Below are positions 1 through 14,576 of a stretch of 16,379 nt of DNA, piece after piece. The notes beneath the pieces were generated by a model, which worked only from the letters and a program-made list of their open reading frames with translations, searched no databases and had not been told where the DNA came from. The translations under genes were made by a program, and so were the position numbers. The stretch comes from a virus (lineage: Duplodnaviria; Heunggongvirae; Uroviricota; Caudoviricetes), in the IMG/VR virus record IMGVR_UViG_2602041863_000003, positions 1 through 16,379 of that record; one strand, written 5' to 3'. Every line of letters begins with the position of its first letter. The stretch's first letter is position 1.

Positions 1-52
1 GAAATCCCTCGCCACCTCTGATGTGTCAGGCATCCTCAACGCACCCGCACTT

Positions 53-78
53 AACCCGCTTCGGCGGGTTTTTCGTCG
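53..78 (+). terminator. Intrinsic terminator-like hairpin (aacccgcttcggcgggttt) followed by T-run
   Basis: GC stem cccgc/gcggg with ttcg loop then ttttt; same 18-nt core recurs at 901-918. Confidence 0.5.
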
Positions 79-199
79 CATAATGAGGTTGTAATTTTAG
101 CTACCATTAGACTATCCTAAGGATCTCAAACAGATCTATTTTGCATCAAATTTGGTGCATGGCTTTGCCAATAATCGGAAAACAAAAGGACTCATTAGT

Positions 200-379
200 A
201 TGAGCTGCCCACTCAAAAAACACACGCGGTTGAGTATTCCGCCTCGCGATAAAAGCGTTGTGGCAGTCCCTCGCCCAGCGATTGATGAAAACTGCGCACA
301 TCGTGAACAAGTGAAAAATGCTTTTGATTTCGGTTTTTCTCGTTATGAGAAAGCCATGGAAGAACTTTCAAAAGTGTAA
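200..379 (+). CDS. Small protein upstream of Doc-family toxin; candidate antitoxin
   Basis: ORF track 152..379 begins at TTG; internal ATG at 200 (MSCPLKKH...) has AAGGA about 10 nt upstream; stop is 19 nt before the toxin ATG; antitoxin role is inferred from position only. Confidence 0.4.
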   Translation: MSCPLKKHTRLSIPPRDKSVVAVPRPAIDENCAHREQVKNAFDFGFSRYEKAMEELSKV

Positions 380-397
380 TGATGGGTATTGTGCTCT

Positions 398-883
398 ATG
401 GCTGAGATTGTTGAAGGAGTGCATTACCTTACGGTTGATGATCTTGTTGAAATCAATCGTTCCCTAATTGAATTACAGACGCCAGATGAGCCCGTTGGTG
501 TTCTGAGTCCAGATAACTTAAGTTCTTCTCAGGCCCGTCCCAGCATGGTTCGATGGTATGAACAGACTAATGACATGTTTGTACTGGCATCGGTATTGAT
601 TGAAAGTCTGATTCAGAATCATCCGTTTGCTAATGCGAACAAACGAACAGCTATGATGGCTGGTTACGTCTTCTTGTTGTTGAATGGCTATGAGTTAACA
701 GCACCAGGCGATGAAATCGTGGAAATGGCAGAGGGACTGGCCTGCAAAACCTATACTCGAGAAGATCTCGAGAACTGGTTGTGTTATTGGTCTCGCGCGT
801 ATGACAGCCGGGAATTATGTAAAACAGGCGCAACTATTGTTTTGTATGAAACTATCAAGCTTAAAATAGAACAGCAAAACTAA
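398..883 (+). CDS. Doc/Fic-family toxin (death-on-curing-like)
   Basis: Translation contains HPFANANKRTA, matching the Doc-type HxFx(D/N)(A/G)NKR motif; ATG at 398 inside the ORF-track 389 TTG start. Confidence 0.75.
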   Translation: MAEIVEGVHYLTVDDLVEINRSLIELQTPDEPVGVLSPDNLSSSQARPSMVRWYEQTNDMFVLASVLIESLIQNHPFANANKRTAMMAGYVFLLLNGYELTAPGDEIVEMAEGLACKTYTREDLENWLCYWSRAYDSRELCKTGATIVLYETIKLKIEQQN

Positions 884-896
884 AGGTGCTTCCAAT

Positions 897-928
897 GAAA
901 ACCCGCTTCGGCGGGTTTTGTTTTTTCC
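897..928 (+). terminator. Intrinsic terminator after Doc-like gene
   Basis: aaaacccgcttcggcgggttttgttttttcc: hairpin plus T-run 14 nt after the stop codon. Confidence 0.6.
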
Positions 929-998
929 TGGCATTCTGGTTTACAATTCGCACGCCAGCCTGAACAACTGGCACCTGCTGCGCCAGCAGAGACAACCG

Positions 999-1271
999 AT
1001 GGCGCACAAAAACAAATTTCACAATTCTGATACCGACCTTGCCATCCGGCACGGGCGGCGTTCACACGCATTTAAAACCGACTGGTACCAACACCCACCA
1101 TGTACTGAAGAACAGGCCGAATGGCTAATTCATAACTACCGCAGGCGCGGATACGAGGTTAAGAAAGCCCTCAGCCTCGATTATCGTCACTGGATAATCT
1201 ATGTCAGGCTCCCTTATTCCGAACGCCCACCGCGTCCGTCCCGCACATTCCAGCAACGCATCTGGAGGTAA
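999..1271 (+). CDS. Hypothetical small basic phage protein (nin region)
   Basis: Part of ORF 918..1271; internal ATG at 999; stop TAA 1269-1271 sits 1 nt before GTG 1273 of the next gene; no motif recognised. Confidence 0.35.
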   Translation: MAHKNKFHNSDTDLAIRHGRRSHAFKTDWYQHPPCTEEQAEWLIHNYRRRGYEVKKALSLDYRHWIIYVRLPYSERPPRPSRTFQQRIWR

Positions 1272-1272
1272 C

Positions 1273-2322
1273 GTGCGGGTATTACTTCGACCTGTTCCGG
1301 TACCGGAACTTGGGCTGGTGGTGCTAAAACCGGGCCGTGAATCCATGCAGGTATTTCATAACCCTCGAGTTCTGGTGGAGCCGGAACCGAAAAGCATGCA
1401 TGGTCTGCCGTCCGGAGTCGTTCCTGCTGTTCGCCAGCCGCTGGCGGAGGATAAATCATTACTGCCATTTTTCAGCGATGAGCGGGTGATTCGTGCTGCT
1501 GGTGGTGCTGGTGCATTGTCTGACTGGCTGTTACGCCACGTTAAATCCTGCCAGTGGCCTCATGGTGACTATCATCACAGTGAAACCGTTATTCACCGTT
1601 ATGGTACTGGCGCAATGGTGTTGTGCTGGTACTGCGACAACCAGCTGCGTGACCAGACTTCTGAATCACTCGGGCAGCTTGCTCACCAAAACCTGTCAGC
1701 ATGGATGATTGATGTCATCCGCCACGCAATGAATGGCACGCAGGAGCGGGAATTATCGCTGGCTGAATTATCCTGGTGGGCGGTCTGCAATCAGGTGGCG
1801 GACGCGCTACCAGAGGCAGCATTACGTCGTTCTCTGGGGTTACGTGCGGAAAAAATTCGCTCAGTATACCGCGAGAGCGACATCGTGCCGGGAGAGCAGA
1901 CCGCCACCAGCATGCTGAAGCAGCGCACAAAAAATCTTGCGCCGCTGCCTCACGCCCACCAGCAACAGAACCCACCACAGGAAAAGACGGTGGTCAGCAT
2001 TGCCGTTGATCCTGAGTCTCCGGAATCTTTCATGAAACGACCTAAACGTCGCCGCTGGGTTAACGAGAAATACACACGCTGGGTGAAGACACAGCCGTGT
2101 GCGTGTTGTGGTAAGCCAGCCGACGATCCCCATCACCTGATTGGTCATGGTCAGGGCGGAATGGGGACAAAATCTCACGATATTTTCACGCTACCGCTGT
2201 GTCGGGGGCATCACAACGAGCTTCATGCGGATCCGCTGGCGTTCGAAGAAAAGCATGGTTCTCAGGTTGATTTAATTTTTCGTTTTCTTGATCACGCCTT
2301 TGCAACTGGCGTGCTTGGGTAA
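1273..2322 (+). CDS. Phage nin-region protein with C-terminal Cys/His-rich HNH-like zinc-binding domain (NinG/YbcO-like)
   Basis: ORF 1201..2322; GGAGG at 1264-1268 then in-frame GTG at 1273 (spacing short, start uncertain; ATG at 1201 or 1345 possible); C-terminus PCACCGKPADDPHHLIGHGQGGMGTKSHD...PLCRGHHNELH; lies directly upstream of rusA as ybcO/ninG do. Confidence 0.55.
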   Translation: MRVLLRPVPVPELGLVVLKPGRESMQVFHNPRVLVEPEPKSMHGLPSGVVPAVRQPLAEDKSLLPFFSDERVIRAAGGAGALSDWLLRHVKSCQWPHGDYHHSETVIHRYGTGAMVLCWYCDNQLRDQTSESLGQLAHQNLSAWMIDVIRHAMNGTQERELSLAELSWWAVCNQVADALPEAALRRSLGLRAEKIRSVYRESDIVPGEQTATSMLKQRTKNLAPLPHAHQQQNPPQEKTVVSIAVDPESPESFMKRPKRRRWVNEKYTRWVKTQPCACCGKPADDPHHLIGHGQGGMGTKSHDIFTLPLCRGHHNELHADPLAFEEKHGSQVDLIFRFLDHAFATGVLG

Positions 2323-2334
2323 AAGAGGTGACTG

Positions 2335-2694
2335 ATGCTCATAGATTTGGTTTTACCTTACCCGCCGACGGTGAACACTTACTGGCGACGCCGTGGCAGC
2401 ACATATTTTATCTCGGAGGAGGGAAAGCGTTATCGCCGGGCTGTGGCGCTTATTGTTCGCCAGCAGCGGCTGAAATTAAACCTGTCCGGAAGGCTGGCGA
2501 TAAAGGTGATTGCAGAGCCACCGGATAAACGTCGTCGTGACCTGGACAATATCCTGAAAGCACCACTGGATGCACTGACACATGCGGGGTTGCTTATCGA
2601 CGACGAGCAGTTTGATGAAATTAATATTGTGCGCGGTCAGCTTGTTCCTGGTGGGCGGTTGGGGATAAAAATCACAGAACTGGAGTGCGCATGA
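2335..2694 (+). CDS. rusA: Crossover junction endodeoxyribonuclease RusA (Holliday junction resolvase)
   Basis: 119 aa; LPYPPTVNTYW...RRRDLDNILKAPLDALT...GGRLGIKITE resembles RusA as recalled; RBS AAGAGGTG upstream. Confidence 0.85.
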   Translation: MLIDLVLPYPPTVNTYWRRRGSTYFISEEGKRYRRAVALIVRQQRLKLNLSGRLAIKVIAEPPDKRRRDLDNILKAPLDALTHAGLLIDDEQFDEINIVRGQLVPGGRLGIKITELECA

Positions 2695-3380
2695 ATAACC
2701 AGTATTTACAGTTTGTTCGTGAGCAACTCATGATTGCCACCGCCGATTTGAGTGGATCAACAAAAGGGCAGCTTGAAGCCTGGCAGGAGAATGCCATGTT
2801 CGATACAGGGCGTTACAGGCGAAAAAAAATCCGGTACCGCGATGAAGTGACTGGAAAAATGATAACGCGGGATAATCCACCAATCCCGGGAAAGCAATCG
2901 CTGGCGAAAGGTTCATCAATTGCCCTGGTCAGTCCGGTTGAGTTTTCGACATCATCATGGCGACGCGCCGTTCTGTCTCTTGAAGAGCATCAGAAGGCGT
3001 GGGTGCTGTGGGTATACAGTGAAAATCCGAGTTGGGATTATCAGGTGGTCATTGCGAAATGGGCGTGGGATAAGTTTCAGGTGCATTTTGGCACCAGAAA
3101 AATTACAGGGAAAACGCTTGAGCGTCTGAAGAAATTAATCTGGCTGGCGGCGCAGGATGTCAGGGGGAGGATTACTGGGCGTGACGTCTACCAGCGACAG
3201 GAACTTGCCAGACTGTGTGGAGTTAAGCCTGACAACTGGAGCCATAATTATGCGAACTACTGGCGTGAGATGTGCGACATTTTTAAGAAACTCGATACAG
3301 AATCCTTGATTTGCACCGTGAAAATGAGATCGCAACAAAAAGCGACCTTTTCACGACGAGATATTGCAAAAGTCAATTAA
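2691..3380 (+). CDS. Late-gene antitermination protein Q (lambdoid Q family)
   Basis: ATG at 2691 overlaps rusA stop (ATGA); 229 aa; position after rusA and before a terminator hairpin is the canonical Q locus; similarity to Q is from recall. Confidence 0.75.
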   Translation: MNNQYLQFVREQLMIATADLSGSTKGQLEAWQENAMFDTGRYRRKKIRYRDEVTGKMITRDNPPIPGKQSLAKGSSIALVSPVEFSTSSWRRAVLSLEEHQKAWVLWVYSENPSWDYQVVIAKWAWDKFQVHFGTRKITGKTLERLKKLIWLAAQDVRGRITGRDVYQRQELARLCGVKPDNWSHNYANYWREMCDIFKKLDTESLICTVKMRSQQKATFSRRDIAKVN

Positions 3381-3426
3381 ATCGCATACATTTTATGTAA
3401 ATGTGATATTTTGCCGTATAGTGTGT

Positions 3427-3451
3427 AAACCCGCTTAAATGCGGGTTTTTT
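3427..3451 (+). terminator. Intrinsic terminator hairpin downstream of Q (candidate tR'-like)
   Basis: aaacccgcttaaatgcgggtttttt: perfect stem cccgc/gcggg, T6 tail; possible -10 TATAGT at 3417-3422 (weak). Confidence 0.55.
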
Positions 3452-3524
3452 GCTTAACTCTGTGGACCTTTTTATCTGTAGTTGTAAGATATGGATATTC
3501 TTACAATTTAGGTCGGTGAGCTTA

Positions 3525-4289
3525 ATGGAAGAACAGCACGGTAATTACTTTATAAAACGAATTCAGTTGATTGGAAGGGGTGCATTTGGCTTTGTTGAAC
3601 ACGTTAAGGTTTACAACCTCAACAAGGGTGAATGTGGGGATTATGCTAGAAAGGTTTTAGCCCCCGAAAAACCAGAGCTTTTGGCGCAAATAGAGCAGTT
3701 TAGAAGGCGTTTTAAAAGGGAGGTCGTGTATCAATCACATTGCGTACATAGCAATATTGTTCCTATTTATTTGTGCGATTTGTTTGCCGAGAATCCATGG
3801 TTCATTATGGATAAAGCAGAATGTGATCTTGAGCACGAAATAACGAACAACCTTCTTACAACAGATCAAAAAATTTCAATAGTGAAAATGGTATTAGATG
3901 GTGTAGCTCACATCCATGCGAAAGGCTATTTACACAGAGATATAAAACCATTTAATGTCTTGCGATTTAGCGACGGAACATACAAGGTGTCTGATTTTGG
4001 TCTGGTAAAAGATACAAATCCCGAAGGGGATACCACTAAATTGACCGAGATCGGTACCCGTATGGGAAGTACAAGATATATGGCTCCCGAGATTTTATAT
4101 AATGCCGAGTATTCAGTTAAGACTGATGTTTATGCGGTGGGGCGGTTAATTGAGGACTTAAATTTAGATGATAAAAAAATAAAGCCTATCATAGCGAAGT
4201 GTACCAGGATGGATAAAGATGATAGATATCAGACAATAGATGATGTGGCGTTTGATTTTGTGCATTCTTTTTTAAGGAGTGAGTCATGA
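3525..4289 (+). CDS. Eukaryotic-like (Hanks-type) Ser/Thr protein kinase, minimal catalytic domain only
   Basis: Gly-rich loop IGRGAFGFV, candidate beta3 Lys in YARKV, HRDIKPFN catalytic loop, DFG (VSDFGL), APE (YMAPE); ATG 3525 with GGTGAG upstream; ORF-track start 3450 is a TTG inside the terminator. Confidence 0.85.
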   Translation: MEEQHGNYFIKRIQLIGRGAFGFVEHVKVYNLNKGECGDYARKVLAPEKPELLAQIEQFRRRFKREVVYQSHCVHSNIVPIYLCDLFAENPWFIMDKAECDLEHEITNNLLTTDQKISIVKMVLDGVAHIHAKGYLHRDIKPFNVLRFSDGTYKVSDFGLVKDTNPEGDTTKLTEIGTRMGSTRYMAPEILYNAEYSVKTDVYAVGRLIEDLNLDDKKIKPIIAKCTRMDKDDRYQTIDDVAFDFVHSFLRSES

Positions 4290-5029
4290 TTCAGCTGATA
4301 GCGACTTCATCATTCTCGTATCCAAAAGAACCAGGTAGGGTCAACGAAGATTCATTGCTTCCTCCCAAAATTGTAGGGGATGGCATCTTATTTGCCGTAG
4401 CTGATGGTGTAGGTTCATACACTGGTGCCAGTCAGGCTTCATCAATGGCAATTGCTGAACTTTCAGCATTGACAAGCTTATCTTTTGACACAGTTCCGGA
4501 TGTATTTGATGAAGTTAAGCGAAAGGTTATGTCGTTAGCTGATGTTAATGATGAGTTCGATAAAGCTGCTACTACACTTACGTTTTGTTATGTTTGTGAT
4601 AGCGGAATTATTATTGGTCATATTGGTGATTGTCGTTTGTATTGCATTGGAGAGAAGAAAGCATACCAATTGACGAAGGACGATACCAGGCATCAGATGC
4701 TAATTGATCAGAATATTTTTAAACCCAGAGATTTGAAGGATAAACCGGGCAAAAATATCTTAACGACGGCTATAGCCTCAAATGTTGATATGGAATACGA
4801 CTGTGATTTTATCACATGGAAAGATTTACCTAGTATTAACGGGGTATATCATCTGTGTATCATGTCTGATGGGGTTCATAACGTTTGGGAAAAACGCCCC
4901 AGATTTACATCAAATACGATGAGTAATAGTCAGAAGTTTTCTAATGGCATTTTGCGTCGTATAGAGAGAGCCGGACCTGATGATGACTTTTCTTTAGTAA
5001 GTATAATGGTGCGTGTGACGTCAGATTAG
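4286..5029 (+). CDS. PP2C-family Ser/Thr protein phosphatase
   Basis: NEDS, AVADGVGS, IGDCR, IMSDGVHN and C-terminal DDD residues match PP2C metal-binding motifs; AAGGAG RBS 6 nt upstream; ATG overlaps kinase stop (ATGA). Confidence 0.8.
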   Translation: MIQLIATSSFSYPKEPGRVNEDSLLPPKIVGDGILFAVADGVGSYTGASQASSMAIAELSALTSLSFDTVPDVFDEVKRKVMSLADVNDEFDKAATTLTFCYVCDSGIIIGHIGDCRLYCIGEKKAYQLTKDDTRHQMLIDQNIFKPRDLKDKPGKNILTTAIASNVDMEYDCDFITWKDLPSINGVYHLCIMSDGVHNVWEKRPRFTSNTMSNSQKFSNGILRRIERAGPDDDFSLVSIMVRVTSD

Positions 5030-5101
5030 TTGTATAAACTCAGTAGGGAATGCTAATTTCACATACAACATAGTTAAAGAAAACTTAATTTTAATGTAAA
5101 A

Positions 5102-5126
5102 AGGCTGCCCTCAGGCGGTCTTTTTA
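5102..5126 (+). terminator. Terminator-like imperfect hairpin plus T-run after phosphatase gene
   Basis: aggctgccctcaggcggtcttttt; 7-bp stem with two G-U pairs, A-run upstream and T-run downstream. Confidence 0.4.
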
Positions 5127-5248
5127 TGCTCGAAAATTGATGCAGTACGTTAAACGCGCTGGTGGTTGCGAATACCGGTCTTTCAGCTTGCTGGCTTTTT
5201 AGACAAGAGTTATTGGTATGTCACGTTAACCAGAAAAGGGAAAAAGAC

Positions 5249-5446
5249 ATGCTAAAACAGCAGGATATGACCGAAACCGCCAGAGTGGTGTTTAATGAAT
5301 TAAGCGTCACCGAACCGGCGACCGTCGGGGAAATTGCGCAGAATACTTACCTTTCACGCGAACGCTGCCAGTTAATCCTGACCCAGCTTGTTATGGCGGG
5401 TCTGGCAGATTATCAGTTCGGTTGTTACAGACGCCTTCTGCAGTGA
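5249..5446 (+). CDS. Small winged-helix-like DNA-binding protein (hypothetical regulator)
   Basis: 65 aa; ATG 5249 with AAGGGA upstream; VGEIAQNTYLSRERCQLILTQLVMAGL looks like a wHTH recognition segment. Confidence 0.45.
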   Translation: MLKQQDMTETARVVFNELSVTEPATVGEIAQNTYLSRERCQLILTQLVMAGLADYQFGCYRRLLQ

Positions 5447-5596
5447 AGGCTTTTTAATTTGTGGTAATGGGCGGCTGGTGGGTGTTAGCGGCACCTGCCA
5501 GCCATCTGCTCATGCGTTGGGGTCACAAGCAAACCTCAGGCCCATCTGCTTTGCGCAAAAGCAGTATGAGCCTATCAGAGAAGTGCTTATTGATCT

Positions 5597-6646
5597 ATGA
5601 CTAATACTGTAAAAATATCCAGTTGTGAGTTAATCAACGCTGATTGCCTGAAATTTATCCAGACCTTACCGGAAAACTCTGTCGATCTGATAGTCACAGA
5701 CCCGCCATACTTTAAAGTGAAGCCCGAGGGCTGGGATAACCAGTGGGAGGGCGACGATGATTACCTGAAATGGCTGGACCAGTGTCTGGCGCAGTTCTGG
5801 CGGGTACTGAAGCCTGCCGGAAGTCTTTACCTGTTCTGTGGTCATCGCCTGGCATCTGACACCGAAATCATGATGCGTGAGCGCTTTAATGTGCTGAACC
5901 ACATTATCTGGGCGAAGCCGTCCGGACGCTGGAACGGGTGCAATAAGGAAAGTCTGCGGGCGTATTTTCCGGCAACAGAGCGCATTCTGTTTGCAGAACA
6001 TTATCAGGGACCGTATCGCCCGAAAGATGATGGCTATGTGGCACAGGGGCGCGAGCTAAAACAGCACGTCATGGCCCCGCTGATTTCTTACTTTCGTGAT
6101 GCGCGTAAATCACTGGGAATAACGTCAAAACAGATAGCGGAAGCCACCGGAAAGAAAAACATGGCTTCGCACTGGTTTGGTACCAGTCAGTGGCAGTTAC
6201 CGAACGAGGGTGATTACAACAAATTGCAGGCGTTGTTTGCGCGTGTTGCGGCAGAAAAACATCAGCGCGGGGAACTGGAAAAGCCACACCACCAGCTGGT
6301 CAGCACATACAGTGAGCTGAACCGGCAGTACACGGAACTGCTGAGTGAATATAAAAATTTGCGGCGGTATTTCGGTGTGACGGCGCAGGTTCCGTACACC
6401 GATGTCTGGACGCATAAACCGGTGCAGTACTATCCAGGAAAACATCCGTGCGAAAAACCGGCAGAAATGCTGCAGCAGATAATCAACGCGAGCAGTCGTC
6501 CGGGAGACCTGGTTGCAGATTTTTTTATGGGTTCAGGTTCAACGGTAAAAGCGGCGATGGCACTGGGGCGTTGTGCGATTGGTGTTGAGCTGGAGACAGG
6601 ACGTTTTGAACAGACAGTCAGGGAAGTTCAGGATTTAATCGTTTGA
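5597..6646 (+). CDS. DNA methyltransferase, beta-class (N6-adenine or N4-cytosine), no adjacent restriction gene
   Basis: VTDPPYF (motif IV) near N-terminus and DFFMGSGST (motif I, AdoMet binding) near C-terminus: beta-class motif order. Confidence 0.85.
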   Translation: MTNTVKISSCELINADCLKFIQTLPENSVDLIVTDPPYFKVKPEGWDNQWEGDDDYLKWLDQCLAQFWRVLKPAGSLYLFCGHRLASDTEIMMRERFNVLNHIIWAKPSGRWNGCNKESLRAYFPATERILFAEHYQGPYRPKDDGYVAQGRELKQHVMAPLISYFRDARKSLGITSKQIAEATGKKNMASHWFGTSQWQLPNEGDYNKLQALFARVAAEKHQRGELEKPHHQLVSTYSELNRQYTELLSEYKNLRRYFGVTAQVPYTDVWTHKPVQYYPGKHPCEKPAEMLQQIINASSRPGDLVADFFMGSGSTVKAAMALGRCAIGVELETGRFEQTVREVQDLIV

Positions 6647-6695
6647 AACGGATGAGATTGCAGAATTAATTACGCACCATTATTATTCTGCTCCC

Positions 6696-6771
6696 GGCCC
6701 TTTAGCTCAGTGGTGAGAGCGAGCGACTCATAATCGCCAGGTCGCTGGTTCAAATCCAGCAAGGGCCACCA
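6696..6771 (+). tRNA. tRNA-Ile2-like (anticodon CAU; Met/Ile-lysidine type)
   Basis: Cloverleaf traced by hand: acceptor ggccctt/aagggcc, anticodon loop cucauaa, T-loop ttcaaat, CCA encoded; close to E. coli ileX as recalled. Confidence 0.85.
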
Positions 6772-6772
6772 A

Positions 6773-6849
6773 CCGTCACCAGTTCATCAGGAAAGAGCGT
6801 CAACCCTTTAAGTTGAGTGTGCGAGGTTCGAGTCCTCGGTGGCGGGCCA
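6773..6849 (+). tRNA. Atypical tRNA-like gene, anticodon read as UUU, with C8 and C33
   Basis: Acceptor ccgtcac/gtggcgg (one G-U), D-arm with G18G19, anticodon stem tcaac/gttga, loop ccuuuaa, T-arm cgagg-ttcgagt-cctcg, CCA encoded; departs from near-universal U8 and U33. Confidence 0.45.
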
Positions 6850-6851
6850 GT

Positions 6852-6927
<76 letters not shown>

Positions 6928-6930
6928 TAT

Positions 6931-7005
<75 letters not shown>

Positions 7006-7282
7006 GCATTTGAAATAAGCCTTATTGTATTGCAGCACTGGCGTATTTTTTATTACGTGGGAGCAGGTTGTTTTAAGAGACATTCTGTTCTCTGGCTATG
7101 ATTTGAGGCCAGGTTAGCCTCAGTGCTGATTTTTTTTACGACAGCAGAATGGTGCATTATCGGTGGAGATTTTGTATTTCCTGGCAGGGTCGGTAATGCA
7201 TCATTCTGATGTTGTAAGCATCGCTCAGAATAACGTTGAGATTAATCGCGTACTAAGCAAAACTTGGAAATACATCCTTAAC

Positions 7283-7305
7283 CGCCGCACCAGGCGGTTT
7301 TTTTT
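7283..7305 (+). terminator. Intrinsic terminator (ccgcc-gcacca-ggcgg + T8)
   Basis: Perfect 5-bp GC stem followed by eight T residues. Confidence 0.6.
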
Positions 7306-7429
7306 ATTCATTTTTTTCATGGCTCGCTACGGCGGGCCTTTTTCATATCCTCGCCACACCCGGCGCATATCACATCAAATAACGCCGCGCAAAAGGCATC
7401 TGCGGGCGCCTTTGACGGGGTGTTTTTAC

Positions 7430-7451
7430 GGGCCGCTGGTGGCCCTTTTTT
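7430..7451 (+). terminator. Terminator-like hairpin directly upstream of the lysis cassette RBS
   Basis: gggcc-gctggt-ggccc followed by T6; ends 7 nt before AGGAG RBS of the 7471 gene. Confidence 0.5.
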
Positions 7452-7470
7452 ATTTACAGGAGAAAAACGT

Positions 7471-7860
7471 ATGTCTGAACCCTTATCTGGTTCCGGCACG
7501 GCTGCGGCGCTCGGTGGGGCGACGGTATTCGGGCTGTTTACCGGAACGGATTTCGGGATTGTGTTTGGTGCGTTCGCCGGGGCGTTATTTGTGGCAACGA
7601 TGCCGCAGGCGCTTTCAATCTGGCGTGTGGTGGCGCATTTTTTGGTGTCGTTTATCGTCGGCGTGCTGGGGGCGCGCGTGCTGTCAGCCTGGATTGCATC
7701 AAAAACAGGGTATGACGGTACATCGGCAGATGCGCTGTGTGCGGTGCTGGTATCGGTGGTGTCGGTGAAGATTCTGTCGTTCATCCACCAGCAGGATATT
7801 GCATCGCTGGTGTCCGGTGTGTTCTCCCGTCTGCGGGGTGGAGGCGGTAATGTTAAGTAA
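7471..7860 (+). CDS. Membrane protein, putative holin (lysis cassette gene 1)
   Basis: 129 aa, AGGAG RBS 8 nt upstream; Gly/Ala-rich hydrophobic segments consistent with 3 TM helices; first gene of block ending in endolysin. Confidence 0.55.
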   Translation: MSEPLSGSGTAAALGGATVFGLFTGTDFGIVFGAFAGALFVATMPQALSIWRVVAHFLVSFIVGVLGARVLSAWIASKTGYDGTSADALCAVLVSVVSVKILSFIHQQDIASLVSGVFSRLRGGGGNVK

Positions 7861-8125
7861 CCTTCCCGGATTACTGAATGTGGTGTTAAGCACGGTTATC
7901 GTGCTGACGCTCTTTTTTTATCGTCGTGGTGATTCCAGACATAAACCGCTGATGTCGTGGCTGGCCTGGCTGCTGATGCTGCTGTATGCCTTTGCGCCAC
8001 TTTGTTATCTGTGTGGTCGCTTTCCACCCGGTAACTGGCTGGTCGTCCTGATTAACCTGGTGTTCTGCGTGCTGGTGATACGAGCACGCGGGAACGTATC
8101 AAAAATCCTTTCATTACGGAGGTGA
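7850..8125 (+). CDS. Small membrane protein, putative holin/antiholin-type lysis protein (lysis cassette gene 2)
   Basis: ATG 7850 with GGAGG 5 nt upstream, overlaps previous stop; 91 aa with 2-3 hydrophobic helices and basic C-terminus. Confidence 0.5.
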   Translation: MLSNLPGLLNVVLSTVIVLTLFFYRRGDSRHKPLMSWLAWLLMLLYAFAPLCYLCGRFPPGNWLVVLINLVFCVLVIRARGNVSKILSLRR

Positions 8126-8127
8126 GT

Positions 8128-8505
8128 ATGCCCGGTAAATTCAGATTCAGTCGTCGAAGTGAGAAAAATCTGGAGGGCGTCAAACCACAGCTGGTTGCTG
8201 TTGTTCGCCGTGCGCTGGAGCTGACGGAGGTTGACTTCGGTATTACGGAAGGCCTGCGCAGTAAGTATCGCCAGAAGCAGCTGGTCGCGGAAGGGAAAAG
8301 CCAGACCATGAACAGCCGCCACCTGACCGGTGATGCGGTGGATGTTGTGGCCTACATTGGTAGCCAGGTGTCATGGGACTGGCCTCTGTACGAGAAAATC
8401 GCGCAGGCATTTAAGCAGGCTGCCGCAGAGCTGGGAACTGCCATCGAATGGGGCGGGGACTGGAAAACACTGAAAGACGGGCCTCACTTTCAGTTGAAGC
8501 GCTAA
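8128..8505 (+). CDS. Endolysin, peptidase M15 family (L-alanyl-D-glutamate peptidase-like)
   Basis: SRHLTGDAVDV (SxHxxGxAxD zinc-binding motif) and DGPHFQ (DxxH); GGAGG RBS; 125 aa. Confidence 0.8.
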   Translation: MPGKFRFSRRSEKNLEGVKPQLVAVVRRALELTEVDFGITEGLRSKYRQKQLVAEGKSQTMNSRHLTGDAVDVVAYIGSQVSWDWPLYEKIAQAFKQAAAELGTAIEWGGDWKTLKDGPHFQLKR

Positions 8506-8519
8506 TAACCAGGTGGTTT

Positions 8520-8702
8520 ATGAGCCGAAAACACTGGACACACAGAATGCCGCGAACGGCGGCGAAATGGGCACTGGTAGCGATACTGGTGCCTTTTTTC
8601 CTGGTGGGATGCGTTAGCCTGGATAAGGTGCGCCAGCTTTTCGATACGGCCTCGCAGGTCTGCGAAATTGTCGAAAGTGCCAGGCAGTGTATGCAGAACT
8701 GA
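8520..8702 (+). CDS. Small lipoprotein, possible lysis accessory/spanin-like protein
   Basis: Basic N-terminus, hydrophobic stretch WALVAILVPFFLVG and lipobox LVGC; AGGTGG RBS; lies where Rz/Rz1 sit in lambda; not proline-rich like typical o-spanins. Confidence 0.4.
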   Translation: MSRKHWTHRMPRTAAKWALVAILVPFFLVGCVSLDKVRQLFDTASQVCEIVESARQCMQN

Positions 8703-8789
8703 TCGCCTGTAAGAGCAGAATATTGTTGAATCTAAATTTACTTTGAACAGTGGCCCGGATGGAAAGGGCATCTAAATAGGAGCAGAAAA

Positions 8790-8999
8790 ATGTTAACTGT
8801 AAAAGTCATGTCTCAAAATGGTGGGGAAGAGCTCCATTGCGGGCGTAGCATTGGCTATCATCCAGAGCAGCGGAGTATTGCCGTATCGGGAAAGGATGGG
8901 AAAGTCATTCTGAAAGATGGAGATATTGCTTATGTAATGAACCAAAACGCTCAAATAATATCTGTTTATCGGCCCAATAATAGTCAGAAAAACATTTGA
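8790..8999 (+). CDS. Hypothetical small protein (69 aa)
   Basis: AGGAG RBS 7 nt upstream of ATG; AT-rich by eye; no motif recognised. Confidence 0.5.
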   Translation: MLTVKVMSQNGGEELHCGRSIGYHPEQRSIAVSGKDGKVILKDGDIAYVMNQNAQIISVYRPNNSQKNI

Positions 9000-9122
9000 A
9001 TTTCGCAAGTCCAAAGTTCAGTGGTGATCGTTATCAACTAATTGAAATAACAAGCTTATGTTTGTGTAATTGGTGATATAGCATGTTAATGCTGAATATC
9101 AGCGTCAACATGGAGTTATACA

Positions 9123-9338
9123 ATGGTTTTTAAACACTATTACGTGAACAAAAATGCTCAGAGCAATGGCGATCATGAGGTGCATGCTGAGGAATGTTCA
9201 TATCTTCCTTCTGTAGCTAACCGCGATTACCTTGGTTACTATAGTGATTGTTCTTCGGCGGTAACAGAGGCAAAGGCCAAAGGATATTCCCGGGTGAATG
9301 GTTGCTATTGGTGTGCCAATAAGTGCCACACGTCTTAA
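9123..9338 (+). CDS. Hypothetical small Cys-rich protein (71 aa)
   Basis: GGAG RBS; five Cys plus His (C..C, CxxCxxxC near C-terminus) suggest a metal-binding knuckle; terminator follows. Confidence 0.5.
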   Translation: MVFKHYYVNKNAQSNGDHEVHAEECSYLPSVANRDYLGYYSDCSSAVTEAKAKGYSRVNGCYWCANKCHTS

Positions 9339-9357
9339 TCAATTGTCAATAAACCAT

Positions 9358-9381
9358 AAAGGCCGCTCTGCGGCCTTTTTC
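9358..9381 (+). terminator. Intrinsic terminator (ggccgc-tct-gcggcc + T5)
   Basis: Perfect 6-bp GC stem, 3-nt loop, T-run, 20 nt after stop of the 9123 gene. Confidence 0.65.
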
Positions 9382-9649
9382 ATGTTAAAAAAGATTGCGG
9401 CATTACAGCAGCCCTTCACACTGAGTGGCTGCGATAATGTGAGAAATAAAAAACCGGCAGGGGAAATCCATTGAAGATTTGCCGGTGGCAAAAAGATGGC
9501 CATGCTTTCAACCTTAGTCGCAGGGTTACGGAGTGCAACTACGAATGCTGCCGGTATATGGCTGAATGGCGTTTCAATGATGTACGTCATCTTATCTGTA
9601 AATGTTAATGATAAAAGCTCTCATTTGTGCGGGTCCTTCCGGTGGGGTG

Positions 9650-9680
9650 GCCTGCCACGGGGCGGGAGCGTCGCGGAAAA
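9650..9680 (+). other. Candidate cos site (cosN-like), with cosB-like region extending to the terminase small-subunit gene
   Basis: ccacggggcgggagcgtcgcgg resembles lambda cosN (acggggcggcgacctcgcgg) as recalled; sits about 170 bp upstream of the Nu1-like gene; downstream has ttcgtcat like the lambda cosB region. Confidence 0.5.
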
Positions 9681-9845
9681 AGGCTAGTTTTTGAAATTTT
9701 ATTCGTCATCACCATCACTGTAATTGATTGATATTACAGTGATTTTATTTTTATGGTGTCGATTCTGATTGTTTTTTGTTCATCACTAACACCGTTTGCC
9801 TAAAGTTGTTCGCAAGATGCATGTTTAAAACATTCTGGAGCGGGT

Positions 9846-10340
9846 ATGGATCGAGAGTTAAAAAATCTGACGCTGAATATCAGTCAACTGGCGGCATTGT
9901 CAGGTGTACATCGCCAGACTGCTGCGGCAAGGCTGCAAAATCTACCCGTTGCAGGGGGGCATGAAAGCAACCTCAAGCTTTATCGGGTGGTTGATATTGT
10001 GTCGGCATTTCTGGCATTACCACCGCCGGTTGCAGAAGGCGAAATGGACGCGCATGAGCGCAAAGCCTGGTATCAGTCTGAACGTGAGCGTCTTAAGTTC
10101 GAACAGGAAACGGCGCAACTCATTCCGGCCAGTGATGTCAGACGGGAGTTTGCCATCTGGGCAAAAGCGGTCGTGCAGGTGCTGGAGACATTACCGGATA
10201 TTCTTGAACGTGACTGCGGTCTGCAGCCTGCCGCTGTGAGCCGTGTTCAGTCCATTATTGATGATCTGCGCGATCAGATAGCCCTGCGGGTGACCGAAGC
10301 AGGTGCGGATGATGAGGAGGAATTACAGCAGGAGGAGTAA
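9846..10340 (+). CDS. Terminase small subunit (Nu1-like DNA packaging protein)
   Basis: N-terminal wHTH-like LTLNISQLAALSGVHRQTAAARL, acidic C-terminus; GGAG RBS; stop overlaps large-subunit ATG. Confidence 0.75.
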   Translation: MDRELKNLTLNISQLAALSGVHRQTAAARLQNLPVAGGHESNLKLYRVVDIVSAFLALPPPVAEGEMDAHERKAWYQSERERLKFEQETAQLIPASDVRREFAIWAKAVVQVLETLPDILERDCGLQPAAVSRVQSIIDDLRDQIALRVTEAGADDEEELQQEE

Positions 10341-12442
10341 TGCTGAATCAGGAAACCGCAAAGGCAGCACGAACCGATTCAGGTTATATCCTTCGCGCAC
10401 CGAGACGAATGCAGGTTGCTGATGCCGTTGCTCAATATATGCGGGTGCCCATGGGGGCCGGGAACTCAGTCCCGTGGGATCCGCTGGTGGCACCGTATGT
10501 TATTGAGCCGATGAACTGCCTGGCCTCGCGTGAATACGACGCAGTGATATTTGTTGGCCCGGCACGAACCGGCAAGACTATCGGCCTGATTGACGGCTGG
10601 GTGATTTACAACGTGATTTGCGATCCTGCGGATATGCTGATCATTCAGATGACGGAGGAAAAAGCCCGCGAACACTCCAAAAAACGACTTGCCAGAACGT
10701 TTCGCGTCAGCCCGGAAGTGGTCAGTCGCCTGAGTCCGAACAAAAATGACAACAACGTTTATGACAGAACATTCCTTGCTGGTAACTACCTGAAAATCGG
10801 CTGGCCGTCAGTCAATATCATGTCCTCATCAGATTATAAATGCGTCGCGCTGACGGATTATGACCGTTTTCCGGAAGATATTGATGGCGAGGGGGATGCT
10901 TTCTCTCTTGCCTCAAAACGTACCACAACATTTATGTCCAGTGGTATGACGCTGGTGGAGAGTTCCCCCGGCAGGGATGTGAAGGATGTGAAATGGCGAC
11001 GGACTTCACCGCATGAGGCTCCACCAACCACGGGGATCCTGTCGCTCTATAACCGTGGTGATCGCCGTCGCTGGTACTGGCCCTGTCCACACTGTGGTGA
11101 GTATTTTCAGCCCTGCGGCGATGTGGTTGCTGATTTCCGTGATATTGCCGATCCCGTGCTGGCAAGTGAGGCGGCTTATATTCAGTGTCCTTCCTGTTCA
11201 GGACGGATTATGCCTGAACAAAAACGTGAGCTGAACGGACGTGGGGTCTGGTTGCGGGATGGTGAATCCATCAATGCGGATGGCAGTCGTTATGGTGATC
11301 CCCGACGCTCACGTATTGCGTCATTCTGGATGGAGGGTCCGGCAGCTGCTTACCAGACACTCTCGCAACTCGTTTACAAACTGCTTACTGCAGAACAGGA
11401 ATACGAGACAACCGGAAGTGAAGAAACACTCAAGACGGTTATCAATACCGACTGGGGATTACCTTATCTTCCCCGTGCCAGCATGGAGCAACGAAAAAGT
11501 GAACTGCTTGAGCAGCGGGCAGAGCCAGTTCTTTCCCGCAGTGTGCCGGATGGCGTTAATTTCCTTGTGGCGACAGTGGATGTGCAGGCGGGACGTCATC
11601 GCCGTTTTGTGGTTCAGGTAACGGGCTATGGCAGCCGTGGCGAACGCTGGATTATTGATCGTTACAACATCACGCAGTCATTGCGCGGTGACAGCGACGG
11701 GGAGAGCCAGCGAATTGATCCGGCCAGCTACCCGGAAGACTGGGATGTCCTGCTGACGGATGTTTTTCATAAAAGCTGGCCGCTGGCCTCCGATCCTTCT
11801 CAACAAATGCGACTGATGGCAATGGCGGTGGACTCCGGCGGTGAAGACGGGGTCACTGATAATGCCTATAAATTCTGGCGTCGTTGCCGTCGTGATGGCC
11901 TTGGTAAACGTATTTACCTGTTTAAGGGTGACAGCATCCGGCGCGCAAAACTGATCAGCCGTACATTCCCTGATAACACCGGACGAACGGGCCGCCGGGC
12001 GCAGGCCGCAGGTGATGTGCCGCTCTGGCTTCTTCAGACGGATGCCCTGAAAGACCGGGTGAATAACGCGTTATGGCGTGACTCGCCAGGTCCCGGCTAT
12101 GTGCATTTCCCTGACTGGCTGGGGAGCTGGTTTTACGACGAACTGACGTATGAAGAGCGGAGCAGTGACGGGAAATGGAGTAAGCCGGGTCGCGGTGCCA
12201 ACGAAGCTTTTGACCTGATGGTGTATGCCGAGGCTCTGGTCATTCTGCATGGATACGAAAAGATCCGCTGGCCGGATGCACCGGAGTGGGCGAGCCGGGA
12301 AACCTGGCTGGAGTGTGTCCCGGACAGTACCGAACCGTCACCCTCACCGGAACCGGTATCCACGCCTGTTAAAAAACAAAAACGGAAGAAAACAGTAACT
12401 GACGATGTTAACCCCTGGCTGACTTCCGGAGGATGGTTATGA
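10340..12442 (+). CDS. Terminase large subunit (lambda gpA-like)
   Basis: 700 aa; Walker A VGPARTGKT; CPHCGEYF zinc-finger-like motif as in lambda gpA (CPHCGE). Confidence 0.9.
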   Translation: MLNQETAKAARTDSGYILRAPRRMQVADAVAQYMRVPMGAGNSVPWDPLVAPYVIEPMNCLASREYDAVIFVGPARTGKTIGLIDGWVIYNVICDPADMLIIQMTEEKAREHSKKRLARTFRVSPEVVSRLSPNKNDNNVYDRTFLAGNYLKIGWPSVNIMSSSDYKCVALTDYDRFPEDIDGEGDAFSLASKRTTTFMSSGMTLVESSPGRDVKDVKWRRTSPHEAPPTTGILSLYNRGDRRRWYWPCPHCGEYFQPCGDVVADFRDIADPVLASEAAYIQCPSCSGRIMPEQKRELNGRGVWLRDGESINADGSRYGDPRRSRIASFWMEGPAAAYQTLSQLVYKLLTAEQEYETTGSEETLKTVINTDWGLPYLPRASMEQRKSELLEQRAEPVLSRSVPDGVNFLVATVDVQAGRHRRFVVQVTGYGSRGERWIIDRYNITQSLRGDSDGESQRIDPASYPEDWDVLLTDVFHKSWPLASDPSQQMRLMAMAVDSGGEDGVTDNAYKFWRRCRRDGLGKRIYLFKGDSIRRAKLISRTFPDNTGRTGRRAQAAGDVPLWLLQTDALKDRVNNALWRDSPGPGYVHFPDWLGSWFYDELTYEERSSDGKWSKPGRGANEAFDLMVYAEALVILHGYEKIRWPDAPEWASRETWLECVPDSTEPSPSPEPVSTPVKKQKRKKTVTDDVNPWLTSGGWL

Positions 12443-12633
12443 ACCAGAATGATATCGAAGCCATGATTCAGCGTTATACGGAAGCTGAAATGGCGGTGCT
12501 GGACGGAAAATCCGTCACCTTTAATGGTCAGCAGATGACCATGGAAAACTTATCTGAGATCCGGCAGGGACGGCAGGAGTGGGAGCGCCGCCTTGCGGCT
12601 CTGATTACACGACGACGGGGGCATCCCGGGTAG
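12439..12633 (+). CDS. Head-tail joining protein W-like (gpW family)
   Basis: About 64 aa ending ...ITRRRGHPG, like the lambda gpW C-terminus (...RRRGPAGFYV) as recalled; start overlaps terminase stop (ATG at 12433 or 12439). Confidence 0.65.
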   Translation: MNQNDIEAMIQRYTEAEMAVLDGKSVTFNGQQMTMENLSEIRQGRQEWERRLAALITRRRGHPG

Positions 12634-12688
12634 CGGTGTTTATGATGCAGATATCAGTGGTGCATCGACATTAATCCTCCACTTCAAT

Positions 12689-13063
12689 ATGAATGCGGGG
12701 AGTTGCCCTGCTGTACAGTTCCGCGTGAATTACAGGAACGGCGGTATTTTTTATCGTTCAGCGCGTGATGGTTATGGCTTTGAAGCTAACTGGTCAGAGT
12801 TTTACACCACAACACGCAAACCCTCTGCGGGGGATGTTGGTGCATATACGCAGGCAGAATGTAACTCAAGGTTTATTACAGGTATTCGCCTTGGCGGTCT
12901 GTCATCTGTTCAGACATGGAAAGGCCCCGGCTGGTCTGACAGGTCAGGTTATGTCGTTACGGGTTCAGTTAACGGAAACCGTGATGAATTAATTGATACA
13001 ACTCAGGCAAGGCCAATTCAGTATTGCATTAATGGGACGTGGTATAACGCGGGGAGTATTTAA
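12689..13063 (+). pseudogene. Side tail fibre C-terminal fragment (5'-truncated remnant fused downstream of W)
   Basis: Lies immediately upstream of a tail-fibre assembly gene; the frame stays open upstream of ATG 12689 to at least 12623 with no start, indicating a truncated gene at a deletion junction. Confidence 0.55.
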
Positions 13064-13065
13064 CG

Positions 13066-13599
13066 ATGATGCACTTAAAAAACATTACTGCTGGCAACCC
13101 TAAAACAAAAGAGCAATACCAGCTAACAAAGCAATTTAACATCAAATGGCTTTATTCAGATGATGGAAAAAACTGGTATGAGGAACAAAAGAATTTCCAG
13201 CCAGACACTTTGAAAATGGTCTATGACCATAACGGCGTTATTATTTGTATTGAAAAGGATGTTTCAGCAATTAATCCAGAGGGTGCAAGCGTCGTTGAAT
13301 TACCTGATATTACAGCAAATCGCCGGGCTGATATTTCGGGGAAATGGATGTTCAAAGATGGCGTAGTGATAAAGCGAACTTATACCGAGGAAGAGCAGAG
13401 GCAACAAGCGGAAAATGAAAAGCAAAGCCTGTTGCAACTTGTCAGGGATAAAACCCAGCTATGGGACTCACAGCTACGGCTGGGCATCATTTCCGACGAG
13501 AATAAACAAAAATTAACCGAGTGGATGCTCTATGCGCAGAAAGTCGAATCTACAGACACCTCCAGCCTGCCAGTAACATTTCCAGAACAACCAGCATGA
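13066..13599 (+). CDS. tfa: Tail fibre assembly protein (Tfa)
   Basis: 177 aa; N-terminus MMHLKNITAGNP; C-terminal LTEWMLYAQKVESTDTSSLPVTFPEQPA typical of lambdoid/e14 Tfa. Confidence 0.8.
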   Translation: MMHLKNITAGNPKTKEQYQLTKQFNIKWLYSDDGKNWYEEQKNFQPDTLKMVYDHNGVIICIEKDVSAINPEGASVVELPDITANRRADISGKWMFKDGVVIKRTYTEEEQRQQAENEKQSLLQLVRDKTQLWDSQLRLGIISDENKQKLTEWMLYAQKVESTDTSSLPVTFPEQPA

Positions 13600-13627
13600 A
13601 ACAAGGCCCGATAGCGGGCCTTAATTT

Positions 13628-13981
13628 TTATTCAGGCTTTTGTGGCCATTCAGGATTTGCCGTATCCACACGGCTGACCAGAACACTGTAGCGTCCCCAT
13701 GCTTCCAGTCGTGTGCGTTCCTCGTCTGTTGCCATATTCAGCCTGACAGCGCGTTCCAGCGGCCGAATAACGCTTTCTGCTTCGGAAAGTAACGCGGCCT
13801 TTTGTGATTCGGCCTGTTGTTGCTGTTCGTCAGCCGTATAAATCCGTTTAACGACTGCGTCGTCCTTAAACATCCACTTTCCGGAATCATCAGCGCGGCG
13901 GTTGGCTGGTGAACTTTCGATAGTGCGAGTATTGAATGATTTCCAGCCGTTATCGATTTTATATAACTGCCGTGGAATTAT
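13628..13981 (-). pseudogene. Inverted tail fibre assembly gene fragment (tfa', 5'-truncated)
   Basis: Minus-strand translation ...[31 protein letters not shown]...[25 protein letters not shown] parallels the plus-strand Tfa ([31 protein letters not shown]); frame extends upstream of Met 13873 to an in-frame stop at 13982-13984 with no start. Confidence 0.7.
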
Positions 13982-14391
13982 TCAACACACAGGAAAAACG
14001 GAATAAGCTGAGAAAAAAGCGTGCTTTCCCAATCTGGGGCAAATCACGTCTGAATGACACCTGAAAATTTCCCGTCCGTTAAGTGTCCGCCCCGAGAGAA
14101 GTGGGAACCATAACACCCTGTCGGGACGCAGAAAGAAACAATACAACTTGCAGGGATATTTTCTTGATAAAGCATGAATGAGCAAGTGATTGTTTGTGCT
14201 GGCGGGGATTTTAGGAATTTTTCTTCATTTTAATGTATAGAATTCAAACAGCAAGCGAGAGAAAGTCTTTCTGCAAAACTAAAAGAGATTTCAATAAAAT
14301 CAAGCAGTTAAAAACACGGGAAAACGGTATAAAAAAGCATCTCAAAATCCTGTTTTTTCTTTTATGTACAATGTGTTATTGCATTTTTTAA

Positions 14392-14517
14392 AATCTATCA
14401 GTGTGGTACATGGATATCGATACCACCGCCAATTATAAGCTGGGCGGTGCACAGCAACACGATAGCGTACGCCTCGATCCGTGGGTGTTTATGTTCTCAG
14501 CAGGATATCGTTTTTAA
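14392..14517 (+). pseudogene. ompW: ompW 3'-terminal fragment (likely attR-side remnant of prophage insertion)
   Basis: Frame translates NLSVWYMDIDTTANYKLGGAQQHDSVRLDPWVFMFSAGYRF*, matching the OmpW C-terminus as recalled; in-frame stop at 14389-14391 just upstream; no upstream ompW sequence. Confidence 0.75.
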
Positions 14518-14530
14518 TTCCGCACAAAAA

Positions 14531-14553: not shown

Positions 14554-14576
14554 ATAAGGACATTGTATAAAGGGTA

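Follow-up and report, generated by a model that had tools for sequence, protein, structure and literature searches.

A kinase and a phosphatase gene adjoining in a lambdoid prophage

The 16,379 nucleotides (nt) of DNA analyzed here (IMG/VR record IMGVR_UViG_2602041863_000003, positions 1 to 16,379; referred to as the window) are a lambdoid prophage region of Escherichia coli. Reading from the left, a Fic/DOC gene, DUF968, RusA and the antiterminator Q are followed by two genes that encode a Hanks-type Ser/Thr kinase and a PP2C-type phosphatase. A small winged-helix open reading frame (ORF), a DNA methyltransferase, four tRNAs, two holins, an M15 endolysin and the small and large terminases come after this cassette. 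An earlier note on this DNA had proposed that the two proteins (254 and 247 amino acids) retain their catalytic motifs and that the kinase lacks a sensor or membrane domain. Profile searches, alignments of homologs and structure predictions verified this description, and both proteins are genuine enzymes with intact catalytic residues and are under strong purifying selection.

The kinase matched the Pfam family Pkinase (PF00069) with an E-value of 2e-33 and 116.3 bits (cutoff 31.7). All 46 aligned homologs, which share 43-75% identity, start at the Met of MEEQHGNY, and a longer TTG-initiated ORF from position 3450 was therefore discarded as the kinase start. The G-loop residues G17, G19 and G22, K43, E66, the motif H137-R138-D139-x-K141-x-x-N144, D157-F158-G159, D201 and G206 were invariant in this alignment, and the APE motif (187-189) and R234 were nearly invariant. 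The sequences HRDIKPFN and GSTRYMAPE are signatures of the Ser/Thr type. AlphaFold2 returned a single globular domain with a predicted local distance difference test (pLDDT) score of 91.9, in which the activation loop (approximately residues 165-180) alone was poorly predicted, and Foldseek identified a bilobal fold with template modeling (TM) scores of 0.71-0.81 to PknB and eukaryotic kinase domains. The protein is unusually compact, with approximately 29 residues absent between subdomains IX and XI (alphaG region). RD-type kinases are subject to control by activation-loop phosphorylation and the nearly invariant Thr174 of this loop suggests that the same applies here, which would make the loop the natural target of the partner phosphatase. 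Comparison with the 95%-identical allele of strain ML35 yielded a ratio of nonsynonymous to synonymous divergence (dN/dS) of 0.04.

The phosphatase matched the Pfam family PP2C_2 (PF13672) with an E-value of 2e-14 and 54 bits (cutoff 24). Residues N20/D22, D40-G41-x-G43, G114-D115-x-R117, D132, D195-G196 and D233-D234, including the Asp motifs recognized in the earlier note, were invariant in 45 homologs. AlphaFold2 again predicted one globular domain (pLDDT 94.1) with the PP2C beta-sandwich fold, which gave TM scores of 0.75-0.80 to the PDB structures of PstP, Stp1 and tPphA. The dN/dS value against the ML35 allele was 0.12.

Joint inheritance and decay of the two genes

The stop codon of the kinase gene and the start codon of the phosphatase gene overlap by 4 nt (ATGA), as had been observed before, and this arrangement is common in the family. 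In all 89 loci of a sample made up of 80 from IMG/VR and nine others, the phosphatase gene directly followed the kinase gene on the same strand, mostly with a 4-nt overlap. Pairwise identities of the kinases and of the phosphatases co-vary (r=0.87; Mantel test, 0/999; 55 distinct pairs), and both average approximately 47%. A three-gene system was considered and rejected, as no third gene is conserved and the ORFs abutting the phosphatase gene are mutually unrelated. The ORFs found in this position (L029, L084 and L085) or near the Pseudomonas putida copy comprise a small terminase, an ORF with a weak, sub-threshold match to a glycosyltransferase, an ORF of no family and a PNP protein.

At four loci (L024, L025, L055 and L083) the kinase gene was frameshifted or truncated while the phosphatase gene was intact. 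The reverse, an intact kinase next to a broken phosphatase, was found at none of the loci examined. Decay that strikes the kinase first would be expected if the kinase were toxic and the phosphatase protective, although the numbers are small. A separate irregularity is seen on an IMG/VR contig (L086, positions 1-2534), which has three overlapping kinase fragments and a 366-amino-acid phosphatase made of two partial PP2C copies. This arrangement is probably an assembly artifact or a local duplication.

Distribution and genomic slots

At the DNA level, the cassette was detected in 50 of 5426 complete E. coli genomes and was always chromosomal. Two alleles (at least 99% and about 95% identical) could be distinguished, and their genes carry generic names assigned by the Prokaryotic Genome Annotation Pipeline. 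One of the alleles clusters in genomes of enterotoxigenic E. coli (ETEC), among them E24377A, TW10573 and O6:H16, and ETEC strains account for many of the carriers. The cassette DNA had zero matches in 50,697 phage records, and phage homologs were revealed only by protein searches. Homologous pairs with 40-45% identity immediately follow Q in Cronobacter phage phiES15 and separate Rz from the small terminase in Escherichia phage Flotzy. In the PHROGs collection, the kinase belongs to phrog_2361 and the phosphatase to phrog_5650; no function is assigned to the latter. Approximately 200 homologs were obtained for each protein; all are approximately 240-265 amino acids long and repeatedly occur on shared contigs. 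Their hosts include Enterobacterales, Vibrionaceae, Pseudomonas, Aeromonas, Pasteurellaceae, Xanthomonas and others.

The surroundings of 57 non-redundant loci were classified by Pfam scans of the neighboring genes and iterative searches, which revealed three recurrent slots. Approximately 19 loci lie between lysis genes (lysozyme, Rz) and the small terminase. The second slot follows Q and holds approximately 11-12 loci, so that the conservation at Q-proximal sites that the earlier note had suggested looking for was indeed found; three unrelated Q families (PF06323, PF03589 and PF06530) occur there. The third slot (5-8 loci) is located directly 3' of a cI-type repressor with helix-turn-helix and S24 peptidase domains, co-directional with it and with a divergent Cro/YdaS-like gene opposite; Pfam scans confirmed it in L032, L036, L053, L070 and L081. 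As the pair stands behind the repressor gene, its expression in the lysogen is implied at these loci. The place behind cI is that of rexAB in the lambda gene order, and stk of the 933W type is labeled as an immunity-region gene in phage records. Sixteen of the 57 loci remained unclassified.

Individual copies illustrate this diversity. The Yersinia copy follows a lambda-type Q, the Enterobacter and Serratia copies lie between lysis genes and terminase, the Haemophilus copy resides in a prophage early region and the Vibrio copy is found at the edge of a PM2-like prophage. Two copies are located outside of phages. In P. putida (L008, positions 2995-4518) the pair is part of a transposase-rich island and adjoins a 507-amino-acid protein of the phosphorylase superfamily (PNP_UDP_1), and the chromosomal copy of Xanthomonas arboricola (L095, positions 8682-10646) adjoins a 654-amino-acid NACHT/STAND NTPase and a SymE toxin. 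These neighborhoods look like defense islands. Two distinct defective prophages, the one in the window and that of E24377A, retain the cassette in intact form. The pair is a conserved and horizontally mobile cargo unit (moron) across Gammaproteobacteria.

Insertion into a Q-proximal leader

The earlier note had judged the cassette by eye to be richer in A and T than its flanks. Its G+C content was computed to be 0.382 versus 0.48 for Q and 0.51 for the methylase gene, and the G+C content at third codon positions is 0.34-0.37 versus 0.52-0.56. A composite query of both flanks was used to identify sibling prophages that share Q and the methylase gene and differ in the content between them. Strain SMN152SH1 represents the empty site, which consists of Q, the promoter-like block, one terminator hairpin, a small ORF and the methylase gene, and strain PSS-15 contains a PemK/MazF toxin gene at the equivalent site. 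Alignment with the empty site defined the inserted material as the left hairpin, a 70-nt leader, both genes and a 67-nt trailer. Folding supported the two flanking terminator-like hairpins that had been reported previously (left, 3427-3448, -13.8 kcal/mol, z=-3.9; right, -18.3 kcal/mol, z=-4.4). The conserved flank common to >3000 E. coli genomes begins approximately at the right hairpin. Each cargo, that of PSS-15 as well as that of the window, has a terminator hairpin on either side, and both contain GGGTTTTTTG..GCTTAAC just 3' of the left hairpin; the joint corresponds to positions 3416-3460 and 5090-5130 of the window, 1980-2100 of L090, and 2000-2180 and 2800-2900 of L091.

The cassette is located inside the short leader between a presumed late promoter pR' and a tR'-like terminator, 5' of the methylase gene and the tRNAs. 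This Q-proximal leader has the appearance of a joint for interchangeable cargo that is empty or filled with either a MazF toxin or the kinase and phosphatase. Synonymous divergence (dS) between the window and ML35 is 0.14-0.16 for the cassette and 0.59 for the adjacent Q gene; the cassette has therefore moved between backbones more recently than the backbones diverged. The placement between conserved backbone genes, the deviant composition and the flanking terminators are those of a moron, and the empty site, the alternative cargo and the low G+C content bear out the earlier view of the pair as a cargo cassette. That view had also equated the site with the slot in which Stx phages carry stx. 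The assignment to a late-operon cargo slot after Q stands, whereas the position 5' of the methylase gene and the tRNAs is near but not at that of stx, which in Stx phages lies 3' of the tRNAs.

A pR' promoter after Q is the general lambdoid arrangement. The putative pR' block has 8 of 12 matches, which is below the threshold of the promoter scan, and is kept in four prophages with different cargo. As the left hairpin precedes the kinase gene, transcription of the kinase from pR' must pass the cassette's own terminator. Antitermination by Q, as in lambdoid late-gene regulation, would permit this passage. A weak promoter had been suggested upstream of the kinase gene (TTGTAA, 3482-3487; TACAAT, 3502-3507) and was not upheld. 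Its spacer measures 14 nt, the promoter scan gave no match to it and nothing that resembles a sigma-70 site between 3450 and 3525, and the hexamers are in fact the arms of an inverted repeat with 8 perfectly matched bp (TTGTAAGA-9 nt-TCTTACAA; arms at 3482-3489 and 3499-3506) that lies 5' of the kinase ribosome-binding site. Both arms are changed in the ML35 allele (G to T and C to G) with retention of RNA pairing (G-C to U-G), and the repeat may serve as an operator or form a hairpin in the RNA. The fold of the leader as a whole was no better than that of shuffled sequences (z=-1.35 and -0.84) and gave no support to a structured RNA. The positions of all elements are listed in Table 1.

Table 1. 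Elements of the cassette and the adjoining prophage backbone in the window.
Feature	Position	Strand	Remarks
Hanks-type RD Ser/Thr kinase, 254 amino acids	3525..4289	+	ATG start; Pkinase match; without accessory domain
PP2C (PPM) Ser/Thr phosphatase, 247 amino acids	4286..5029	+	ATG start; translationally coupled to kinase (ATGA)
Likely late promoter pR' (TTGCAA-17 nt-TACATT)	3364..3392	+	Overlaps end of Q; based on position and conservation; read by eye
Left intrinsic-terminator hairpin (AAACCCGC-6 nt-GCGGGTTT and T-run)	3427..3454	+	Missing from empty site; came with the cargo
Leader with 8-bp inverted repeat and Shine-Dalgarno-like AGGT..GGTGA	3455..3524	+	70 nt
Cassette trailer	5030..5096	+	AT-rich, 67 nt; in window and ML35, not in empty site
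Right terminator hairpin	5097..5126	+	Homolog of the one terminator (tR'-like) in the empty site; right insertion junction
Antiterminator Q gene (phage-82/PF06323 type)	2691..3380	+	Pfam Phage_antiter_Q E=5e-84; annotated as Q in E24377A and ML35; immediately 5' of cassette
Small winged-helix-like ORF (phrog_331)	5249..5446	+	Weak TrmB match; backbone, not cassette
N6/N4 DNA methyltransferase	5597..6646	+	Backbone; profile matches
tRNA cluster (Met/Ile-CAU, Lys, Lys, Gly)	6696..7005	+	Backbone

Prophage backbone

The large terminase gene (10340-12442) is followed by an ORF of 66 amino acids and then directly by a C-terminal fragment of a tail-fiber gene (12689-13063). A tail-fiber assembly gene (13066-13599) with an inverted partial copy on the minus strand (13628-13873) comes next, and host DUF892 genes similar to yciE/yciF are located 3' of the tail-fiber genes at 14577-15677. 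Beyond the tail-fiber fragment and the assembly gene, no head or tail genes are left in the window. As only tail-fiber remnants and host DUF892 genes follow the terminase, the prophage is defective.

The phrog_331 ORF and the start of the methylase gene are kept in >3000 of the 5426 E. coli genomes, O157:H7 prophages included. The first tRNA of the cluster has a CAU anticodon and was called tRNA-Met by ARAGORN but is annotated as tRNA-Ile in E24377A. Sibling prophages have other tRNA sets at the equivalent site (Ile-Thr-Gly in E24377A, Ile-Arg-Arg in ML35). An ORF of the Fic/DOC family (389-883; Pfam Fic E=7e-12) in the early part of the prophage is preceded by a small ORF (152-379), and the two are possibly a Doc/Phd-like toxin-antitoxin pair.

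Proposed function of the kinase-phosphatase pair

Our leading but tentative proposal is that the pair constitutes a minimal module of kinase toxin and phosphatase antidote that acts in superinfection exclusion or abortive infection. The kinase would autoactivate by phosphorylation of its activation loop at Thr174 and, if left unchecked, would phosphorylate numerous proteins of the host or phage, with arrest of the cell as the outcome. The phosphatase, translated from the same message via the coupled ATGA start, would continuously reverse these phosphorylations and serve as the antidote. A competing phage, or any other upset of the balance in which the phosphatase is inhibited, the kinase is activated or expression changes, would allow the kinase to win, and the infection would be aborted or excluded. 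In the resting prophage, expression of the window cassette would depend on terminator read-through or on Q that is provided upon induction or by a related superinfecting phage. We infer here the toxicity of the kinase, its neutralization by the phosphatase, the trigger by infection and the expression of Q-proximal copies in a resting prophage.

The proposal is supported by two intact and constrained enzymes, their obligate linkage, the behavior of the pair as cargo, its occurrence in the repressor slot, the MazF toxin as alternative cargo and the decay of the kinase first. The defense-like neighbors of the non-phage copies, the precedents of the KKP system and of 933W Stk (both described below), the kinase-domain matches in PADLOC and the intact state of the cassette in two defective prophages also speak for it.

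Several observations weigh against it. The window cassette does not have a convincing promoter of its own and a strong terminator lies upstream, so that its expression in the lysogen is only a possibility. Approximately 30 of the 41 classified loci are late and lysis-proximal, which suits a role in the lytic cycle equally well, and the IMG/VR sample is biased to phage contexts. Q and the lysis genes of the defective prophage are also intact, so that intactness alone is no proof of domestication. The decay at four loci versus none is statistically weak (one-sided binomial approximately 0.06) and the loci may be non-independent. Finally, the PADLOC matches of the kinase do not extend beyond the domain (they cover 58-65% of the three best PD-T4-6 profiles), and the phosphatase matches no PADLOC defense model significantly (best E=0.0074).

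The strongest competitor, itself doubtful, is a module for host takeover or tuning of lysis late in the lytic cycle that benefits the phage and whose expression, along with that of the lysis and morphogenesis genes, starts at pR' and relies on Q antitermination. As T7 gp0.7 does, it would remodel the phosphorylation of host proteins, e.g. those for cell division, envelope, transcription or RNA turnover, and the phosphatase would limit or sharpen the action of the kinase or remove phosphates added by host kinases. Such a role agrees with the location of the window cassette within the leader that Q controls, where a terminator precedes it and no promoter is recognizable, and with the fact that the lysis-proximal loci counted above flank the lysis cassette (in the order Q, pair, holin or Rz, pair, small terminase) and are co-directional with the late operon. 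Phages phiES15 and Flotzy, which carry the pair, are viable temperate phages, and the activity of KKP kinases on FtsZ and MinC/E indicates that kinases of this kind can act on the division machinery (PMC11341870). However, the pair is found in the repressor operon of at least five phages and outside of phages, where a late-lytic role would be senseless, and it is kept intact in prophage remnants that are unable to make virions. Its low G+C content and its exchange with a MazF toxin mark it as accessory and not as a part of the lytic program.

An unlikely explanation is a lysogenic-conversion or regulatory module, in which the balance of the two enzymes tunes host or prophage regulators, e.g. 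nucleoid silencers as KKP does via MvaU, or the physiology and colonization of ETEC. The control of prophage activation by KKP through phosphorylation of a silencer provides a model for it (PMC11341870). The repressor-adjacent slot fits any function that is expressed in the lysogen, the pair persists in cryptic prophages, and one allele is concentrated in ETEC genomes. Even so, this concentration may reflect clonal descent (50 of 5426 genomes, two alleles), neither a sensor nor a DNA-binding domain nor a conserved third partner is present, and the very diverse hosts and phage types speak against one host-specific target.

We regard as improbable that the pair is a minimal immune or toxin-antidote family of temperate phages across Gammaproteobacteria, evolutionarily independent of KKP, whose copies in the pR'-tR' leader act as a Q-gated trap. 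Such copies would be silent behind the terminator and switched on by Q from induction or from a superinfecting lambdoid phage that shares the Q specificity, which would turn the antiterminator of the intruder against it. Least probable of all is a purely selfish addiction module that stabilizes the prophage or cassette by post-segregational killing and has no role in phage conflict or for the host: the toxin-antidote logic, the tight coupling, the kinase-first decay and the MazF toxin at the equivalent sibling slot are in line with it, but it needs an unstable antidote and nothing suggests that a globular PP2C of 247 amino acids (pLDDT 94) is labile, and as many prophage toxin-antitoxin systems prove to be defensive, it overlaps with the proposed exclusion module.

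If the proposed toxin-antidote function is correct, no simpler phosphorylation-based module for toxin/antidote or anti-phage action would be known than this bare kinase and bare PP2C phosphatase of approximately 250 residues each. The pair would be a minimal system suited to dissecting how a phage cue shifts the balance of the two opposing enzymes, a question not yet settled for KKP, Stk2 and 933W Stk. Temperate phages of Enterobacterales, Vibrio, Pseudomonas, Aeromonas and Pasteurellaceae widely carry the family, in slots that include the rexAB position, and it may represent a common unannotated determinant of phage host range. The Q-proximal cargo joint, close to the site of the Stx toxin genes, could be mined for further cargo. 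If, on the other hand, the pair acts late in the lytic cycle, it would represent a rare instance of a kinase brought in along with its phosphatase by a temperate phage to reprogram the host.

Comparison with known systems

Phage-borne kinases with a role in exclusion had been named in the earlier note, and the literature bears this out for one of them. The 933W prophage encodes the kinase Stk, which is activated by HK97 infection and mediates exclusion (PMC3681748), and KKP is a precedent that combines kinases with a phosphatase (PMC11341870). Stk resembles the window kinase in being encoded by a lambdoid prophage of E. coli, and some members of the two-gene family are also located behind cI. 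It differs in being a single gene without a phosphatase partner, whereas the window pair follows Q and is not in the immunity region. Membership in the 933W Stk family was rejected at an identity of only 25.7% over 68% of the window kinase.

Proteins assigned to PD-T4-6, Stk2 and mad6 (MADS) likewise share the Hanks kinase domain and differ by extra regions and the lack of a cognate phosphatase. The proposed PADLOC search did return defense-related matches for the kinase core, the best of which were mad6 (9e-40, profile positions 51-243 of 659), PD-T4-6 (1e-34, 11-201 of 327) and Stk2 (5e-28, 160-347 of 500). It gave only a non-significant match of the phosphatase to PDC-M21C and no system-level assignment of the pair. 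As only the kinase core is shared and the NCBIfam MAD6 score was 66.7 bits (cutoff 460), membership in these three systems was rejected.

The chromosomal pairs PknB/PstP, Stk1/Stp1 and PrkC/PrpC are built from the same two folds with opposing chemistry (TM scores of 0.7-0.8 to PknB and to PstP/Stp1). Their kinases are membrane receptors with PASTA or other sensors, the phosphatase gene usually comes first and they belong to the core housekeeping functions, whereas the window kinase is a bare soluble domain of 254 amino acids on mobile DNA. NCBIfam yielded only sub-threshold matches to Stk1/Stp1 (104 versus a cutoff of 450 and 94 versus 230). The TerY-P triad, which is linked to defense, shares the combination of PP2C and Ser/Thr kinase and contains a vWA protein in addition. 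It was dismissed since the window pair has no adjacent TerY/vWA gene (its neighbors are Q and the winged-helix ORF) and no TerY-P match in PADLOC.

The closest system in logic is KKP, which consists of the kinases PfkA and PfkB and the PP2C phosphatase PfpC and is found in Pf, P2, P4 and Mu-like prophages (Guo et al. 2024, PMC11341870). The two kinases are jointly toxic, the phosphatase is the antitoxin, and defense against lytic phages was shown experimentally and is triggered by a phage replication protein that inhibits the phosphatase (PMC11341870). The kinase/phosphatase balance also governs prophage activation via phosphorylation of the silencer MvaU, and phosphorylation of FtsZ and MinC/E by the kinases results in filamentation (PMC11341870). 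KKP and the window pair have in common that a prophage carries, as cargo, Hanks-type kinase activity and a PP2C_2 phosphatase in one operon, with the toxin/antitoxin logic that is proposed here. The differences are considerable. KKP comprises three genes in the order phosphatase-kinase-kinase with products of approximately 300-430 amino acids each, and the window pair two genes in the order kinase-phosphatase with products of approximately 250. One KKP kinase (PfkA-like) has a cold-shock domain and the other (PfkB-like) an FHA domain, whereas the window pair is devoid of accessory domains. The toxicity of KKP requires both kinases and the window pair has one. KKP resides in P2, P4, Mu and Pf phages, the window pair in lambdoid and other phages. 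A cluster of the P2-like Klebsiella phage Kp4865-2, which is KKP-like by gene order only as cold-shock and FHA domains were undetected, matched the window kinase with 29-39% identity over part of its length in BLASTP, and its PP2C match was not significant. Membership of the window pair in KKP was rejected on the grounds that the two differ in the number and order of their genes, in accessory domains and in the sizes of the proteins and that similarity is confined to the domain level.

The earlier note had left open whether the pair is already described. It is annotated only under generic names, no paper on its function was found among open-access papers and preprints, and the same literature contained only KKP and its follow-ups on phage systems of a kinase and a PP2C phosphatase. 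A Hanks kinase/PP2C pair is not among the validated DefensePredictor systems. The two-gene family is coherent and apparently stands apart from every described system, and its concept has a precedent in KKP.

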